From sequence record PZ386974.1: DNA of 64,000 nucleotides, one strand, 5' to 3'. The notes beneath the pieces were generated by a model. The model was given only the letters and a program-made list of their open reading frames with translations, ran no database searches and was not told where the DNA came from. The DNA comes from a phage. Shown piece after piece: positions 1,498 through 58,704 of this stretch; positions within the stretch are counted from its first letter, which is position 1, and every line of letters begins with the position of its first letter. A program made the translations under genes and the position numbers.

Positions 1498-1866
1498 TTA
1501 TGCAACTTTAATCCAATTGTCTAAATTTAAAACACCTTTGGCTTTCATTTTTTCGATCAGGTTATCTGCTGTAATGCGTCCATTTTGATACCATGTAACA
1601 TCTTCAGAGTAACCAGTTTCTTCGTCAACATATGTTTCTGAACGAATTTTACCGGTAATAATAGTTTTTAATTCGTATGTGTCACCTGTGAAAAAGTTTG
1701 CTAACACAATTTTCCAAGAGAAATCATCTGAAGGACCTTCAGGGGTCATACAACTTACGATCTCAAATTGCTCTTTGTATAACATCCACTGGAATTCTTT
1801 AATTTCGATAGCTTTATAACCATCGTGGTCTTTACATTTGATGTATGAGTTCAGATTGATTTTCAT
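1498..1866 (-). CDS. hypothetical protein (122 aa)
   Basis: ORF track; ATG start. Confidence 0.55.
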   Translation of the reverse strand: MKINLNSYIKCKDHDGYKAIEIKEFQWMLYKEQFEIVSCMTPEGPSDDFSWKIVLANFFTGDTYELKTIITGKIRSETYVDEETGYSEDVTWYQNGRITADNLIEKMKAKGVLNLDNWIKVA

Positions 1867-1908
1867 TTTGTTCTCCAGGTTGTTTTATTGATTAGGTGGT
1901 ACAAGTCT

Positions 1909-1937
1909 ATAGTAACACATCCTACAGGAGAGTAAAC
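1909..1937 (-). promoter_or_regulatory. sigma70-type early promoter (-35 GTTTAC, 17 bp, -10 TACTAT)
   Basis: Minus-strand GTTTAC 1937..1932 and TACTAT 1914..1909 upstream of ORF 1498..1866. Confidence 0.5.
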
Positions 1938-1973
1938 ATCTTTTTAAACTTTTTCTGCCCTAAACGCACAAAA

Positions 1974-1989
1974 GGGAGCCGAAGCTCCC
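1974..1989 (-). terminator. intrinsic terminator hairpin GGGAGC-CGAA-GCUCCC plus U-run
   Basis: 6-bp GC stem, UUCG loop on minus transcript, A4 on plus strand just left of stem (U-run on the transcript); 5 nt after stop of ORF 1995..2174. Confidence 0.6.
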
Positions 1990-1994
1990 TAAAA

Positions 1995-16903: not shown

Positions 16904-16932
16904 TTTGATTTCCTCATGTTGTTGATATGACT

Positions 16933-16961
16933 ATACTAACACATCTAGTGAAGAAGTAAAC
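16933..16961 (-). promoter_or_regulatory. sigma70-type early promoter (-35 GTTTAC, 17 bp, -10 TAGTAT)
   Basis: Minus strand GTTTAC 16961..16956 and TAGTAT 16938..16933, between gene 32 terminator and next ORF. Confidence 0.45.
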
Positions 16962-20301: not shown

Positions 20302-23300
20302 ATGGCCGACATCAAACGTAAGTTCAGAGCCGAAGACGGTCTGGACGCCGGTGGCGACAAGATTGTTAACGTAGCATTAGCCGACCGTACAGTAGGTACT
20401 GATGGCGTAAACGTTGACTTCCTGGTACAAGAAAACACCGTTCAAGTATATGATTCTACGCGTGGATATAACAAAGGATTTGTTGTTCTTTATGACAACC
20501 GTTTATATCAAGCAATAAATGATATCGTGTCTCCTTCCGGGGCATTTAACCTTTTACAATGGCGTGCAGTTCGTACCGATGCACAATGGATAACTGTAGC
20601 TTCTGGGACTTATCAACTTTCTTCAGGTGAATCGATTTCGGTTAACACCAGTGCCGGCAATGATATGGTTTTCACGTTGCCAAATGCGCCGGTTGATGGT
20701 GACACTATTGTTTTGGCTGATATTGGTGGAAGAACCGGGGCAGTTAAAGTACAGATTAACGCGTCTGTGCAGAGTATTTTAAACTTTAGAGGCGAACAAG
20801 TTCGTACAGTTTTAATGACGCGTCCGCGTTCACAACTAGTGTTTGTGTTTAGTAATCGTTTGTGGCAGATGTATATCATTGATTACGGTAAAGAATCAAT
20901 CACTGTTACACCTGCTACACCATATCAAGCGCAAGCAAACGATTTTATTGTTCTTCGTTTTACTAGTGCAGCACCAATCAACATTACACTTCCACGTAAT
21001 GCTAACAATGGTGATATAATCAGCCTAGTTGATTTAGATAAATTAAACCCACTGTATCATACGATTATTAAAACATTTGATGATACAACGTCTATTGGCG
21101 AAGTCGGGACTCATATCGTCGAAGGTAGAACTTCTTCTGACGCGTTTTTTGTTTTTGATGCTGCAAATAGTTTATGGCGTATATGGGAAGGCGACCAGAA
21201 ATCACGTCTTCGTATTATCCGTACAGATTCAAATATTCGCCCAAATGAAGAAGTTCTTATTTTTGGTACAAATAACGCTACAGCAGAAACTATTAACCTT
21301 ACGCTTCCTACAGGAATTTTGACCGGTGACACTGTTAAAATTTCAATGAACTACATGCGTAAAGGCCAAACAGTAAAAATTAAAGCTGCCGAAGGTGATA
21401 CAATTGCTTCTTCTGTCGCATTACTTCAGTTCCCTAAACGTTCTGAATATCCACCTGATACTCAATGGGTCTCTGTTACTGAACTAGAATTCAATGGCAC
21501 TACTTCATATGTTCCTGTATTAGAATTAGCGTATATCGAAGACACCGATTCTGACACTCATTATTGGGTTGTGCAACAGAATGTCCCTACAGTAGAACGT
21601 GTTGATGCCGGAACTGATGCTACACGAGCTCGTTTAGGTGTTATTGCTCTTGCTACTCAAGCGCAAGCAAATGCTGATTTAGAGAATACTCCAGCTAAAG
21701 AAGTGGCTATTACTCCTGAAACGTTGGCAAATCGTACAGCAACTGAAGCTCGACGTGGTATCGCTAAAATTGCTACAACAGCACAAGTTAACCAGAATTC
21801 CACAGCATCATTTGTGGACGATACTGTTGTTACGCCTAAAAAACTAAATGAGCGTACAGCAACTGAAACTCGTCGTGGTCTTGCTGAAATTGCTACTCAG
21901 ACTGAAACCGATGCTGGTCTTGATGACACAACGATTATTACACCTAAGAAATTGCAGGCACGTCAGGGTTCTGAAACACTATCTGGTATAGTTAAATATG
22001 TATCAACTACTTCTGCTACTCCGGCTGCATCTCGTGGAGCTGCAGGCACTAATGTTTATAATAAAGACACAACCACGTTAACTATTTCTCCTAAAGCCCT
22101 TGACCAATATAAAGCAACTTATGCTCAACAAGGTGCAGTAATTTTAGCTGTTGATAGTGAAGTAATTGCTGGTCAATCACAAGCAGGTTATTCTCATGCT
22201 GTAGTAACTCCTGAAACACTACATAAGAAAACTTCTACTGATGGACGTATTGGTTTAATTGAAATTGCTACGCAAGCAGAAACTAATGCTGGGACTGATT
22301 ATACGCGGGCAGTAACGCCTAAGACGTTAAATGATAGGAAAGCTACGGAAGGATTATCCGGCATAGCCGAACTTGCTACGCAAGTTGAATTTGATACTGG
22401 AACTGATGATACTCGTATCTCGACTCCACTGAAAATTAAAACTCATTTTGATTCTTCTGACCGTACCAGTGTTAATTCTGATTCCGGACTTATTGAAGAA
22501 GGAACCTTGTGGAACCATTATACTCTTGATATTTCTAAAGCAAATGAAACACAACGTGGTACACTTCGCGTAGCGACTCAGGCAGAATCTAATGCAGGAA
22601 CTTTAGATGATGTTCTTATTACTCCTAAAAAGCTTTTAGGGACTAAGTCCACTGAAACGTCTGAAGGTGTAATTAAGGTTGCTACTCGGGCTGAAACTGT
22701 AACAGGAACTTCTGCTAATACTGCTGTATCGCCTAAGAATTTAAAATGGATTGTCCAGAATGAACCAACATGGGCTGCTACTACGGCAATTCGTGGATTC
22801 GTTAAAACTTCATCCGGTTCTATTACATTCGTTGGTAATGATACAGTTGGTTCAACACAACCTTTAGAATCATATGAGAAAAATAGTTATGCGGTATCAC
22901 CATATGAATTAAACCGTGTACTTGCTAACTATTTGCCATTAAAAGCAAAAGCTGCTGACTCAAATTTATTAGATGGCCTAGATTCATCTCAGTTCATTCG
23001 TAGGGACATTGCACAGACGGTTAATGGTTCACTAACCTTAACCCAACAAACGAATCTGAGTGCCCCTCTTGTATCATCTAGTACTGCTACGTTTGGTGGT
23101 TCAGTTTCGGCAAATAGTACATTAACTATTTCTAATACTGGAACGGCAACTCGTCTGATTTTTGAGAAAGGACCTCAAACTGGAACTAACCCAGTGCAGA
23201 CGATGACTATCAGAGTTTGGGGAAATCAGTTTGGTGGCGGTTCAGATACAACACGTTCTACTGTATTTGAGGTTGGTGATGAAACATCTAATCACTTTTA

Positions 23301-32689: not shown

Positions 32690-33322
32690 TCACAGTACGT
32701 TAGTTACAAGGGTAATGATTTCTTTGGACACATTAGGGAAGTCAATGTAAGTATATTTACCACCGATCTTAATCTTAACATCATTTTCAAGAGAAGTAAA
32801 CAGCTTTGATTCAGTTTCTGACATGTTGTATGCAAAGATTCTAAGAGAACCATCTCGACGAATTTCGATCTGACGAATACCTAGAACTCGTTTAGCGAAT
32901 CGAACTTCTAAGTTACTACGGTTTTCACCAATTTCTTTAACTTCAACTTTATCTTTAATATTTTCAAAAACAAAGTTTGCTAATTCATGCATTTCAGGAG
33001 TAACTCCACGTGCTTTTCTAGTGTTACGTTTCTGAAGAAGTTCTGGAGCATTTTCTTGGGCAAAGAGGTCTGCAGCTTTTTGGATAATATCCATTGCTTC
33101 GCCTGTTGCTACAAGTCCATCACCGGATTTTTCGACTAAACCTTTCTTAATCAATACACCAATGTTAGAGTTAACAACCGATGCATTGTATTCTGCTTCC
33201 AGAGCTTCACGGACATTGGCAGCAGTGGTGAAGTTGTTCTTAATGATATAAACCATTATTGCAGCAGTTTTTTCATTCAGAGCGTTTTCAGAAGCTTTGA
33301 TGATGTAAGTAACTTTAGACAT
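32690..33322 (-). CDS. motA: middle-transcription activator MotA
   Basis: 210 aa; collinear with T4 MotA as recalled (MSKVTYIIKAS..., VLIKKGLVEKSGDGL); ATG start. Confidence 0.85.
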   Translation of the reverse strand: MSKVTYIIKASENALNEKTAAIMVYIIKNNFTTAANVREALEAEYNASVVNSNIGVLIKKGLVEKSGDGLVATGEAMDIIQKAADLFAQENAPELLQKRNTRKARGVTPEMHELANFVFENIKDKVEVKEIGENRSNLEVRFAKRVLGIRQIEIRRDGSLRIFAYNMSETESKLFTSLENDVKIKIGGKYTYIDFPNVSKEIITLVTNVL

Positions 33323-33361
33323 TTTATTTCTCCAATTTGGGTGTTTTGTTTTGATAGGTCT

Positions 33362-33390
33362 ATACTATCATGTTTGAAGCAAAAGTAAAC
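33362..33390 (-). promoter_or_regulatory. sigma70-type early promoter for motA (-35 GTTTAC, 17 bp, -10 TAGTAT)
   Basis: Minus strand GTTTAC 33390..33385, TAGTAT 33367..33362; part of a 78-bp element duplicated at 33635..33712. Confidence 0.5.
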
Positions 33391-33427
33391 TTTATTTTGG
33401 GCTCTTTTTCAAAAGCCCTGGTAAAAT

Positions 33428-33643
33428 TTACAAACTCATTTCTTTAATAAGGCTAATAAGTTTTGCCTTTTTAGAACGAAGCTTTTCTAAATGATGTCCA
33501 TTTGAACCGCGAACCACTAAAGAATTGATTTCAACTTCTAAGAAATTTAATTCTTCAACAAGTGCTTTACGTGGAGCATTCATACCAGGTTTAACTTTAC
33601 CGAAACGAGTAGTTGTGTTTTGGGTTAATTTCATTTTAGACAT
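33428..33643 (-). CDS. hypothetical protein (71 aa, basic)
   Basis: ORF track; ATG start; shares promoter/leader/first three codons (MSK) with motA. Confidence 0.5.
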   Translation of the reverse strand: MSKMKLTQNTTTRFGKVKPGMNAPRKALVEELNFLEVEINSLVVRGSNGHHLEKLRSKKAKLISLIKEMSL

Positions 33644-33682
33644 TTTATTTCTCCAATTTGGTTGTTTTGTTTTGATAGGTCT

Positions 33683-33711
33683 ATACTATCATGTTTGAAG
33701 CAAAAGTAAAC
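33683..33711 (-). promoter_or_regulatory. sigma70-type early promoter (duplicate of the motA promoter)
   Basis: Minus strand GTTTAC 33711..33706, TAGTAT 33688..33683. Confidence 0.5.
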
Positions 33712-33736
33712 TGTTTTGTGAGAAAAATGCACAAAA

Positions 33737-33752
33737 GGGAGCCGAAGCTCCC
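33737..33752 (-). terminator. intrinsic terminator GGGAGC-CGAA-GCUCCC plus U-run
   Basis: Downstream of gene 52 stop; A4 on plus strand left of stem gives the U-run on the transcript. Confidence 0.6.
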
Positions 33753-33828
33753 TAATCATGTTTGTCCAACCAATACAGCCAAATCACTAGTACAGCTATT
33801 GCACCGAGAAATCCTAAGGCTAGGGCAC

Positions 33829-35154
33829 TCAAAGTGCCTCCAAGTCTTTAGTGTACTCGGTCACAACATCAGTAGACTTCCAATACTCATTTTCTTCTTT
33901 CTTAGCTTTAGCTTCTTCTGCTAGTTTACGTGCTTCGTCGGAAGTGATATGGAAGATGTTAAGACCTACCAGTTTATCGACATGTTCTTTATACATTTCG
34001 ATTTGTGCTAGCTCTTCAGTCAAAGCTTTACGAGTCTTGCCCTGAATCACAATTTCACCTGTAATAACTTTTTTGATGAAGTGTGCCTTAGCAAAAGCCA
34101 GTTTAAATGCTTTTTCAGATTCAAGGATTTTGTTGTCAATACGTTTCTGAACGTAAGTCTTACGGACTTCAACAAAATCTTTGATTAAGTCCACTACGTT
34201 ATCGTAGACAGCTAATTTACCCTTTTCATTAATCACTGTGATGTTTTGAGAACGGCGTTCGATGAGACTAAAATCTTTCATGATTTTTTCATGACGTAGC
34301 TCTTCATCATCAGGAAGCGAGTACTCTTTACGGAACTTCACTTTAAACCCAAAGCCGTGTTCACCACAATCATCTTCCCAAGAGATTAGACCTTTGTCTT
34401 CCAACGGGTCAAGAACCTTACTCACATACGTTTCACGGTCGAATTTATATGGGATTTCAGTTATCTGCATTTGAGTGCGAGATGTGAACTTATATGTTCC
34501 GTGAATCTCATAACGCCCATCAACTTCATGTACTTCACCACGGAATTCCGGGAATTCAACTTTTGGCTTAGTGACATTTTTACCTTGAAGAGCTTGTAAT
34601 ACAGCCTTTTTGACTGATTTAAAACTATGAGGCAGAATATTTGTTGCGTAACCGGTTGCAATACCAGAAACACCATTCAAAAGAACTGTCGGAATAATAG
34701 GAAGATAGAATTTTGGTGGAATGTGTTCTTTATCTTCATGAGCTGGAGCATATTCAGTATCTTTATATACGTTATAGAAATTTTTACTTACACGAGCAAA
34801 AATATAACGAGATGCTGCAGCTTTTTGGACTGTTCTAGAACCAAAGTTGCCTTGGCCATCTAACAGTGGATAGTTGTTGTTCCATGTGTTAGCCATCAAT
34901 GCACCTGCATCTTGTGCAGAAGATTCACCATGGTGATAACCTAAATCTGCAACACCACCTGCAATTGACGCAAGTTTATGAAATTTTTCTTTATTACCAC
35001 GAGCCAAATCTAACGCACGATGAACCACAAAACGTTGAACCGGCTTAAATCCATCAATCATGTTTGGGATTGCACGGTTTTCAACGGTGTACATCGCATA
35101 TGCTAAGGCTTCGTTATCAATAATACTTTTTAGATTACGAGAATTCAATTGCAT
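33829..35154 (-). CDS. 52: DNA topoisomerase II medium subunit gp52
   Basis: 441 aa; GyrA-like cleavage/religation core (active-site Tyr region); matches T4 gp52; ATG start. Confidence 0.93.
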   Translation of the reverse strand: MQLNSRNLKSIIDNEALAYAMYTVENRAIPNMIDGFKPVQRFVVHRALDLARGNKEKFHKLASIAGGVADLGYHHGESSAQDAGALMANTWNNNYPLLDGQGNFGSRTVQKAAASRYIFARVSKNFYNVYKDTEYAPAHEDKEHIPPKFYLPIIPTVLLNGVSGIATGYATNILPHSFKSVKKAVLQALQGKNVTKPKVEFPEFRGEVHEVDGRYEIHGTYKFTSRTQMQITEIPYKFDRETYVSKVLDPLEDKGLISWEDDCGEHGFGFKVKFRKEYSLPDDEELRHEKIMKDFSLIERRSQNITVINEKGKLAVYDNVVDLIKDFVEVRKTYVQKRIDNKILESEKAFKLAFAKAHFIKKVITGEIVIQGKTRKALTEELAQIEMYKEHVDKLVGLNIFHITSDEARKLAEEAKAKKEENEYWKSTDVVTEYTKDLEAL

Positions 35155-45414: not shown

Positions 45415-45939
45415 TCATTTTAGCAAAATAAAATCAACTTGTTCTGCCAATGAACGTCTAAACATTAATTGACAACTTCCGAGGATGAAATCAGGTGCTT
45501 CATAGACAGCGATGTAGTATCCTTTAGCTTTCAAGAGTTCAACATCCACCTGGTCATCAAACCATGCATAAACCGCGTCAACACTTTCAAATCCAAAATA
45601 GAACCCTTGAGCCCAATCTTCACTCAATTCAAATGTGTGCTCAATTCTATGGTATCTTAAGATATTTTGTTCAAGGAGTTTGTCTTCATTTACTGTAGGA
45701 CGATTAGGGACATTATAGTTGTCGCCGTGATGGTAGAAGTTACCTGAGATTATTCCGTGTTTATCAAGGAACTCCCATGTTTCTTCAGAGTTGTCGGTGC
45801 CAGACCAACCGTATGGCGAGCGAGGTTCTTTATTCCAAGAGGTTTCCCAAATTCTGACGGCTTTACCGTCTTCGATAGCAATTCCTGGTAATGATTCACG
45901 TTGAGTACAAAAACTACGTTCTACGCGGTAAACTAACAT
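45415..45939 (-). CDS. hypothetical protein (174 aa)
   Basis: ORF track. Confidence 0.5.
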   Translation of the reverse strand: MLVYRVERSFCTQRESLPGIAIEDGKAVRIWETSWNKEPRSPYGWSGTDNSEETWEFLDKHGIISGNFYHHGDNYNVPNRPTVNEDKLLEQNILRYHRIEHTFELSEDWAQGFYFGFESVDAVYAWFDDQVDVELLKAKGYYIAVYEAPDFILGSCQLMFRRSLAEQVDFILLK

Positions 45940-45998
45940 ATTATTCTCCTCTGGTTGATAGGTCTATAATACCAAAACCAGAGGAGAAGTAAACAACT

Positions 45999-50725: not shown

Positions 50726-51334
50726 TCAGTAACTGACAATAGACAGATTCCAAATTGTATAACGTCCATCTTGAATAATAGAATCTACACGCAGTGTAGT
50801 CCCTATAGGGAGCATAAATTCACATTCGTCAGATATAAGTCTAGCATTAGACCGTCTTGTCGCTTCAGGGAAAGCTCCATTGAACTCACAAGATGGCGCA
50901 GCCAGAATCATGTTAAGCATATGTTCACGGAAGTTGAAAGCAAATGATGCATCTTTGATGCAGAACATATTAAATGTTCCATAAAAATTATATGAAGCGA
51001 AGTTACGTGCTACACCAAACACCGGACTAAAGCTCATTACTCTGTCAAATTTAATAATACTACCAATGCCTTTATCATCAAGTGTGGCCATAGTTTTCTT
51101 AGAGATTCCACGATACATTGTCTCAGGAACAGAAGACGTCCAATTTCTACGAACGATTGAACTTAACTCCTGTTGAATACAGTCTGGCTTGTTTTCCATA
51201 CACTGCCAAAGGATGCTTTGTTCATTATCGTTGAATTGACTATCAATTTCGTACTGCAATACATCTTGATATTCGGGGTTTTGAGCACGACGAACCATTT
51301 CTTCAATTTCACACTCGTTATACGGCATAAACAT
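50726..51334 (-). CDS. modA: ADP-ribosyltransferase (ModA-like)
   Basis: 202 aa; R-S-ExE signature (YRG..., SFS, ECE); paralog of the next gene; A/B assignment by order only. Confidence 0.6.
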   Translation of the reverse strand: MFMPYNECEIEEMVRRAQNPEYQDVLQYEIDSQFNDNEQSILWQCMENKPDCIQQELSSIVRRNWTSSVPETMYRGISKKTMATLDDKGIGSIIKFDRVMSFSPVFGVARNFASYNFYGTFNMFCIKDASFAFNFREHMLNMILAAPSCEFNGAFPEATRRSNARLISDECEFMLPIGTTLRVDSIIQDGRYTIWNLSIVSY

Positions 51335-51362
51335 TTAGGTTTCTCCTCTGGTTGATAGGTCT

Positions 51363-51391
51363 ATAGTATCATCGTCCTTGTTGTTTGTACA
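51363..51391 (-). promoter_or_regulatory. sigma70-type early promoter (-35 TGTACA, 17 bp, -10 TACTAT)
   Basis: Conserved TACTATAGACCTATCAACC box directly upstream of the modA-like SD/ATG. Confidence 0.45.
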
Positions 51392-58335: not shown

Positions 58336-58649
58336 ATTTCCTCACAGAATGCCCATTCAGCATGATAAACTGTAGCACCTTTAGTATCATTCATTTGAAC
58401 TACATCTACCGGAGAAATTACTCGATAGAGACGTGGTTCACCTCCATAAGAGCGTGCTGCTCGTCCTGCATAAATCTTTGCTAAACCGATATCTTCAGTA
58501 AAGAATACACGATCCAAGTTTTTCTTACGTCCAGTTTCAGACAGAACTCCTGTTTCCTCAGGAGGACAAAGCATGTTTTCGATGTTAGCTGAACTACTTG
58601 AACCGTGATAAAAAATCTTAAATTCTGCTTTACAATCGATGGTTTTCAT
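58332..58649 (-). CDS. hypothetical protein (105 aa)
   Basis: ORF track. Confidence 0.5.
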   Translation of the reverse strand: MKTIDCKAEFKIFYHGSSSSANIENMLCPPEETGVLSETGRKKNLDRVFFTEDIGLAKIYAGRAARSYGGEPRLYRVISPVDVVQMNDTKGATVYHAEWAFCEEI

Positions 58650-58704
58650 TTTGTTCTCCAGTAGTTGATAGGTCTATAATAACACAACTACTGGAGAAGT
58701 AAAC

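Follow-up and report, generated by a model that had tools for sequence, protein, structure and literature searches.

Two adjacent genes of a T-even phage, motA and a 71-aa gene immediately upstream of it, begin with almost the same promoter, leader and start codon. Are the two copies kept alike so that two proteins are made together, or is their likeness left behind by recombination? We examined this question in a stretch of 64,000 nt of phage DNA (sequence record PZ386974.1), referred to here as the window, whose coordinates are used throughout. The window belongs to a Mosigvirus, an RB69-like T-even phage, and the 2.6 kb round the repeats is 98–99.4% identical to vB_EQ1, PHB12, HX01, APCEc01 and others.

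Gene order between gene 52 and motA

The 71-aa gene, orf71, is the cargo of a cassette site flanked by two conserved genes, 52 and motA; the adjoining arn.x/ndd.x region is variable. The reading frames of the locus are listed below in the order of transcription.

33829–35154, minus strand: gene 52, medium subunit of topoisomerase II, 441-aa ORF, the upstream neighbour of the cassette
33752–33832, minus strand: 26-aa hydrophobic ORF (MSALALGFLGAIAVLVIWLYWLDKHD); its TTG start overlaps the stop of gene 52, GGAGG precedes the start, and its stop codon lies within the terminator stem
33428–33643, minus strand: orf71, the 71-aa cassette cargo, starts MSK
32690–33322, minus strand: motA, activator of middle-mode transcription, 210 aa, starts MSK

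Gene 52 was recognized by Pfam DNA_topoisoIV (8.2e-78) and by the annotation of its relatives as gp52, and motA by Pfam MotA_activ (2.4e-39) together with MotCF and PHROG 1345. The 26-aa ORF is an annotated CDS in HX01 and corresponds in position to T4 motA.1, itself a hydrophobic ORF of 49 aa. A further ORF of 42 aa (33631–33759, minus strand) spans the terminator and promoter of copy B and is listed as a hypothetical protein in NHEP11 and vB_EQ1; here regulatory DNA has almost certainly been miscalled as a gene.

The product of orf71 matched PHROG 6200 (2.8e-40), which is annotated as of unknown function, and had no matches in Pfam, NCBIfam or PADLOC. A single-sequence AF2 model (pLDDT 80) shows a basic, disordered tail at the N-terminus followed by a helical hairpin (residues 23–45 and 50–70), and a structure search of BFVD with this model returned the protein's own family as the sole significant match. 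Weak PDB matches were all to uL23 (phmmer E = 0.44–0.56). We rejected a uL23-like ribosomal protein as the identity of orf71: the similarity was lost with the family profile, and Pfam Ribosomal_L23 gave no match at E ≤ 10.

We found orf71 in 94 phage records from three genera, a count that includes GenBank/RefSeq duplicates. In 76 of them the identity is at least 95% (Mosigvirus), in one it is 88%, and in 17 it is 60–80%, the last set containing the Dhakaviruses JS98, IME08, VR5 and Bp7 and two Salmonella phages. Each record holds exactly one copy, and the earlier proposal that the repeats could amplify the 71-aa gene found no amplified form among them. The orf71 of ECCR664 (701–916 of the extracted locus) has a frameshifted C-terminus ending in KLRSKRQNLLALLKK and a length of 68 aa; the gene may be decaying in this phage.

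Two predicted early-promoter units

Each of the two genes is preceded by one copy of the repeat.

33635–33720, minus strand: repeat copy B, early promoter/leader/start unit of orf71; -35 GTTTAC at 33711–33706, TGn and -10 TAGTAT at 33688–33683, SD GGAG at 33654–33651, ATG at 33643–33641
33314–33399, minus strand: repeat copy A, early promoter/leader/start unit of motA; -35 at 33390–33385, -10 at 33367–33362, SD GGAG at 33333–33330, ATG at 33322–33320

Re-alignment of 33314–33391 with 33635–33712 reproduced the reported near-identity, 77 of 78 nt, the sole mismatch being G at 33341 against T at 33662 (plus strand). The similarity extends in register to 82 of 86 nt (95%) over 33314–33399 and 33635–33720, and the copies are spaced 321 bp from start to start. 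Read on the minus strand, both consist of GTTTAC, a 17-nt spacer ending in TGA, TAGTAT, the leader, GGAG, 7 nt and ATGTCTAAA, as had been described, and both ORFs (motA, 33322..32690; the 71-aa ORF, 33643..33428) do begin MSK (ATG TCT AAA). The description of two early-promoter/leader/start-codon units, one before motA and one before the gene upstream of it, is thus supported.

The early-promoter consensus of T4 and RB69 has GTTTAC at -36 to -31 and an A-rich sequence at -40 to -44 (PMC1524935); T4 early promoters are of the UP/-35/TGn/-10 type, with A at -11 and T at -7 in the -10 hexamer (PMC1524935, PMC2988021). Copies A and B, as predicted promoters, contain every element of this type, and both have A-rich sequence at -37 to -47. 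The leaders are A-rich and predicted to be unstructured, to an equal degree in the two copies. MotA of T4 is an early product (PMC2988021). From these sequences and what is known of T4, both genes should be immediate-early products, each made from its own promoter.

In order to count early promoters in the window we used a dedicated pattern, GTTTAC-N16-18-TANNNT. It occurs 25 times against 3.0 ± 1.7 expected, an 8-fold enrichment, and 24 of the 25 sites are on the minus strand. GTTTAC/TAGTAT falls short of the threshold of a generic sigma-70 scan, which therefore flagged neither repeat promoter. The spacer of the repeat pair recurs at none of the other 23 sites in the window. Since other early promoters in the window share only 60–83% similarity with the pair over about 50 nt, an identity of 77/78 stands above the background of the promoter family. 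Each half of the repeat unit occurs exactly twice in the 64-kb window with up to 3 mismatches allowed, and shuffled sequences predict no occurrence. Another repeat family, five copies of a 44-nt coding repeat (61–89% identical, spaced 108–375 nt), lies at 21733–22577 and presumably represents a repeated peptide motif in a structural gene.

Stem-loops of the two units

A stem-loop lies at the upstream side of each unit.

33722–33753, minus strand: upstream unit's stem-loop, following gene 52; GGGAGC-UUCG-GCUCCC with the U-tract UUUUGUGCAUUUUU after it; -15.5 kcal/mol, z = -3.8 (RNA fold)
33399–33418, minus strand: downstream unit's stem-loop, which separates the stop of orf71 from copy A; GGGCUUUU-GAAA-AAGAGCCC, 8 bp with a GNRA loop; -12.3 kcal/mol, z = -3.6

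The first of these is a predicted intrinsic terminator of gene 52, and the annotations of SA79RD, PhAPEC2 and ATK47 list it as a terminator. A hairpin with a U-tract after gene 52 is retained, with different stems, in Dhakavirus and in T4 and Salmonella phage Manna. The second hairpin has no U-tract; it is followed by a AAAAUAAA stretch and then by the promoter, leader and start of motA. Dhakavirus and Manna retain it as GAGCUCUU-GAAA-AAGAGCUC. Across the genera one pair changes from G-C through G.U (VR5) to A-U, a compensatory series, and another from U.G to C-G. Such a hairpin would only attenuate transcription, and because it lacks a U-tract motA may also be transcribed from the upstream promoter. 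A search of the region against Rfam gave matches at chance level only, far below gathering scores.

The loop of the gene 52 terminator (33736–33753) was found in two orientations among near-identical genomes, GGGAGC-TTCG-GCTCCC and GGGAGC-CGAA-GCTCCC, when the same site was compared in RB69, PhAPEC2, LF82-2 and UGJNEcP1. T4 and Manna differ likewise, with GCC-GA-GGC and GCC-TC-GGC. The whole terminator palindrome appears to have been inverted, turning the UUCG tetraloop into CGAA in the mRNA.

Occupied and empty sites

The gene 52–motA locus was found at 95% identity or more in about 155 Mosigvirus records, again including GenBank/RefSeq duplicates, and orf71 in about 77, so that roughly half are without the gene. 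We typed 21 of the about 155 loci base by base (13 occupied, 8 empty); IMG/VR scans contributed 4 loci. The sequenced empty sites are those of RB69, AV112, mar005P1, mogra, phiC120, p000y and two IMG/VR contigs, each with one unit. The expectation that the repeats act as a recombination substrate and that relatives carry deletion variants was borne out: such variants are abundant, include RB69 itself, and are shorter by exactly one 321-bp period. Both states occur within one species (APCEc01, occupied; p000y and mar005P1, empty), and occupied and empty genomes are interspersed when they are ordered by the similarity of either flank.

Two leader haplotypes are found in Mosigvirus. The B haplotype, CAAAACAAAACAACCAAATTGGAG, always precedes orf71, and the A haplotype, CAAAACAAATACTAATTTGGAG, precedes motA in 9 of the 13 occupied genomes sampled. 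Empty sites have a single chimeric unit, of which there are two junction classes. In RB69 the gene 52 flank and a B-like spacer are joined to an A leader (40/40). In the other seven a B-type leader is fused to motA, with AV112 and phiC120 matching the B leader at 42 of 42 positions. The two types of chimera therefore place the exchange point either in the promoter core or in the 24–25 nt (AAA)TTGGAGAAATAAAATGTCTAAA stretch. Within Mosigvirus any one event may have been a deletion or an insertion.

Probable conversion of the motA unit

The closest genome, vB_EQ1, has a copy B identical to that of the window, while its copy A has a TATTAT -10 and an A-type leader. Only 9 differences separate the two genomes in 1536 aligned nt, and 6 of these fall within one short segment of copy A.

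33336–33365, minus strand: conversion tract of copy A in its minimal extent, covering the leader from the -10 G onward; the motA leader is overwritten with an orf71-type leader

At 5 of the 6 positions copy A has the base found in copy B of the window itself. This pattern is the signature of a conversion tract, putatively 30–78 nt long, running from the orf71 unit to the motA unit. The patch could instead have come by allelic recombination with a co-infecting phage bearing a B-type motA leader; the best-matching donor is the window's own copy B. The converted state is also present in a minority of the other occupied genomes, namely NHEP11, NHEP10, PHB12, UGJNEcP1/2 and EP02SG.

The three remaining differences between the window and vB_EQ1 cluster within 16 nt of motA coding sequence (32894–32909), and the rest of the 1536 nt is without differences. 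vB_EQ1, NHEP11, PHB12 and SA79RD share the other allele at these three substitutions, which may mark a second small recombination patch.

Concerted change of the two copies was also observed outside Mosigvirus, with TTATGC in both copies of VR5 and TTCTGC in both copies of JS98. The match between the copies of one genome forms a gradient. In Manna the promoters agree at 21/33 positions; in JS98 the promoters agree at 29/29 and the leaders at 29/42, in HX01 at 27/29 and 37/42, and in the window at 29/29 and 41/42. The shared block of Mosigvirus reaches into the first three codons, so that the products of orf71 and motA both start with MSK; in Dhakavirus the orf71 product starts with MNK.

Gain of the cassette in Salmonella phage Manna

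The gene 52 and motA of Manna are 97% identical to those of T4, and its terminator and upstream promoter 87%. Its orf71 is 95–97% identical to that of Dhakavirus (JS98/VR5), and its hairpin and downstream promoter 88–91%. The sequence changes from T4-type to Dhakavirus-type in the SD/ATG of the upstream unit, and back in the promoter core/leader of the downstream unit. These positions mean that a backbone of T4 type received one period at the promoter/leader units. We rejected the view of T4 as a deletion derivative of a Manna-like ancestor, since a Dhakavirus-like cassette in a backbone 97% like T4 represents a gain in Manna.

Probable recombination between units

Composite units of this general kind are known as PeSLs (promoter-early stem-loops), for which Arbiol et al. 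(2010; PMC2839356) gave the definition and a recombination model; the sequence-only reading had not identified the cassette as one of this type. We consider it very probable that PeSL-type units bracket orf71, that recombination between the units drives loss and gain of the gene, conversion and transfer between genera, and that the near-identity of the copies is a by-product of this traffic and not a regulatory design. In each composite unit a stem-loop would come first, then a strong sigma-70 early promoter of T4 type, an A-rich leader without structure, GGAG and finally the start codon. Two such units would flank a one-gene ORFan cassette inserted at the gene 52–motA junction. Through their homology the units would be open to the highly active recombination system of T-even phages, with three outcomes, all of them documented by the sequence comparisons. 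A crossover between units would remove or insert exactly one 321-bp period and leave one chimeric unit. Gene conversion would homogenise the units; a tract of 30–78 nt would have supplied the motA unit with a -10 and leader of orf71 type, and this would therefore be the source of the 77/78 identity. Between genera, the units would act as the junctions for horizontal transfer of the cassette.

The chief alternative is a regulatory one, in which selection keeps the copies identical to ensure simultaneous synthesis of MotA and the 71-aa protein in equal amounts, perhaps because the two act together, recombination being incidental. The sequence-only reading took identical signals to imply strict co-regulation. 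Core promoter, leader, GGAG and start codon are indeed common to the two units, and the leaders are equally unstructured. Both units also contain GGAGAAAUAAA, which resembles a RegB/S1 target and matches 9 of the 11 positions of the consensus (positions 7 and 8 deviate); the target itself is the 11-nt single-stranded GGAGRAYARAA (PMC1702504). In T4, motA is a good RegB substrate, and cutting of its mRNA in the SD shuts off translation (PMC1702504, PMC2988021). The orf71 and motA mRNAs may, from their sequences, be candidate RegB targets.

Strict co-regulation is nevertheless an overstatement. The repeat begins about 8 nt upstream of the -35, and the UP-element regions, which matter for T4-type early promoters (PMC2988021), are unlike between the copies. 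The leaders of the two genes differ in 9/13 of the occupied Mosigvirus genomes sampled (37/42 in HX01); the near-identity is therefore a recent conversion state of this phage, not a functional requirement. About half of the Mosigviruses, RB69 among them, do without orf71, and the hairpin between the genes is of the kind without a U-tract. Dhakavirus copies share the promoter core only, and those of Manna share little. Neutral SNPs that are lineage-specific and yet common to both copies point to conversion and not to selection. On this evidence we regard regulatory design as an improbable explanation of the repeat.

We think it very unlikely that all exchange took place between allelic sites of co-infecting phages, with the units serving as conserved landmarks and not as exchange partners. 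T-even phages do recombine pervasively, such exchange would account for the interspersion of occupied and empty genomes by flank similarity, and the Manna cassette could stem from a double crossover with a Dhakavirus. But the fusion of an orf71-type leader to motA in empty genomes is a junction that only non-allelic exchange between units gives, the 30-nt patch of the window is closer to its own copy B than to any sampled empty-site allele, and the two junctions of Manna join T4-type to Dhakavirus-type sequence within non-allelic units. A one-off recent tandem duplication of the motA promoter, or an assembly artefact, without wider evolutionary meaning would fit copies 321 bp apart that agree at 77/78, but comparative data already refute it, as 94 independently sequenced records from three genera have orf71 bracketed by two units, the flanks and leaders of the two units are distinct and orthologous across genera, and a conserved coding gene lies between them.

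Recombination between PeSL-type units, the explanation that we favour, would make the locus a clean natural case of PeSL-mediated modular shuffling, with junctions at base level for loss and gain, conversion and transfer between genera. The promoter concerned is that of motA, an essential and well-studied regulator, in phages of the RB69 group, which is widely used in phage therapy collections. The 321-bp PCR polymorphism at motA offers a simple measure of recombination between repeats of about 80 nt, the motA leaders constitute a natural allelic series, and orf71 is flagged as a predicted immediate-early accessory gene that half of the genus can dispense with. The cassette reveals no new mechanism.

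A broader reading joins these points, and we put it forward tentatively, as a possibility that we would not yet back. The motA regulatory region might be a hot exchange point at which an ORFan cassette hops between T-even genera via early promoter/leader units, while intragenomic conversion repeatedly rewrites the motA -10, its 5′ leader and even the first codons of its neighbour; orf71 could then encode a factor for takeover of the host, made immediate-early and with its expression coupled to that of MotA. If motA were such a point, isolates would carry interchangeable motA leaders, possibly differing in MotA dosage or RegB sensitivity.

Other PeSL-like sequences were noticed elsewhere in the window. 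At 1865–1992 (minus strand) a terminator hairpin, GGGAGCTTCGGCTCCCTTTTGTGC, 86% identical over 42 nt to 33714–33755, stands before a GTTTAC early promoter, GGAG and ATG; together they make up a third PeSL-like unit, which could pair with those at motA. Early promoters at 45937–45994 and 58647–58704 (also 16904–16961 and 51334–51391) have an inverted repeat, TTCTCCTCTGGTT...AACCAGAGGAGAA, round the -10/-35. They correspond to the PeSL subclass whose stem-loop and promoter overlap, and the best two copies are 83% identical over 58 nt.

Comparison with known systems

Deletions between short direct repeats in T4 are known from the classical rII deletion studies. As in those, the empty sites described here lack exactly one repeat period with the intervening DNA, the crossover lying inside shared sequence. 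They differ in that the repeats at motA are functional regulatory units of 78–86 nt, that the polymorphism is natural and widespread, and that horizontal gain occurs too. Integron cassettes are also single promoter-proximal ORFs that come and go as units at one defined site, with a circular intermediate proposed. Unlike them, the motA locus has no integrase and no attC/attI, would depend on general homologous recombination, and holds a cassette that carries its own promoter.

In T4 too, an early promoter of GTTTAC type lies between the gene 52/motA.1 terminator and motA, with GGAG followed by an A-rich tract. In contrast to the window T4 has a single unit, with a promoter and leader of another sequence type. 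This unit is orthologous to the upstream unit of Manna (promoter 27/30, leader 38/49).

The closest counterpart is the PeSL cassette, known in the T4-type phages RB49/phi1, PST/T4 and nt-1/KVP40 (PMC2839356, PMC4122927). As judged from sequence, the motA locus combines in one composite an early promoter of sigma-70 type with an AT-rich region upstream, a stable stem-loop, and an SD and start codon at the 3′ end. The units flank an ORFan of unknown function that is present in some genomes and absent from close relatives, which have a single chimeric unit, and they are points of exchange between otherwise unrelated sequence. The stem-loop of a PeSL serves as terminator or attenuator, PeSLs prefer hyperplastic regions, and encapsidated mini-circles form by exchange between neighbouring PeSLs (PMC2839356). 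In comparison with published PeSLs, the motA locus adjoins an essential regulator between conserved genes and not a classic hyperplastic region, and its stem-loops lie upstream of the -35 and not within the promoter. Its cassette is found in Mosigvirus, Dhakavirus and one Tequatrovirus, and it shows a discrete conversion tract, with the first three codons overwritten. Comeau et al. (2014; PMC4122927) make no mention of the motA locus or of RB69. By these features we place the locus within the already described kind of PeSL cassette.
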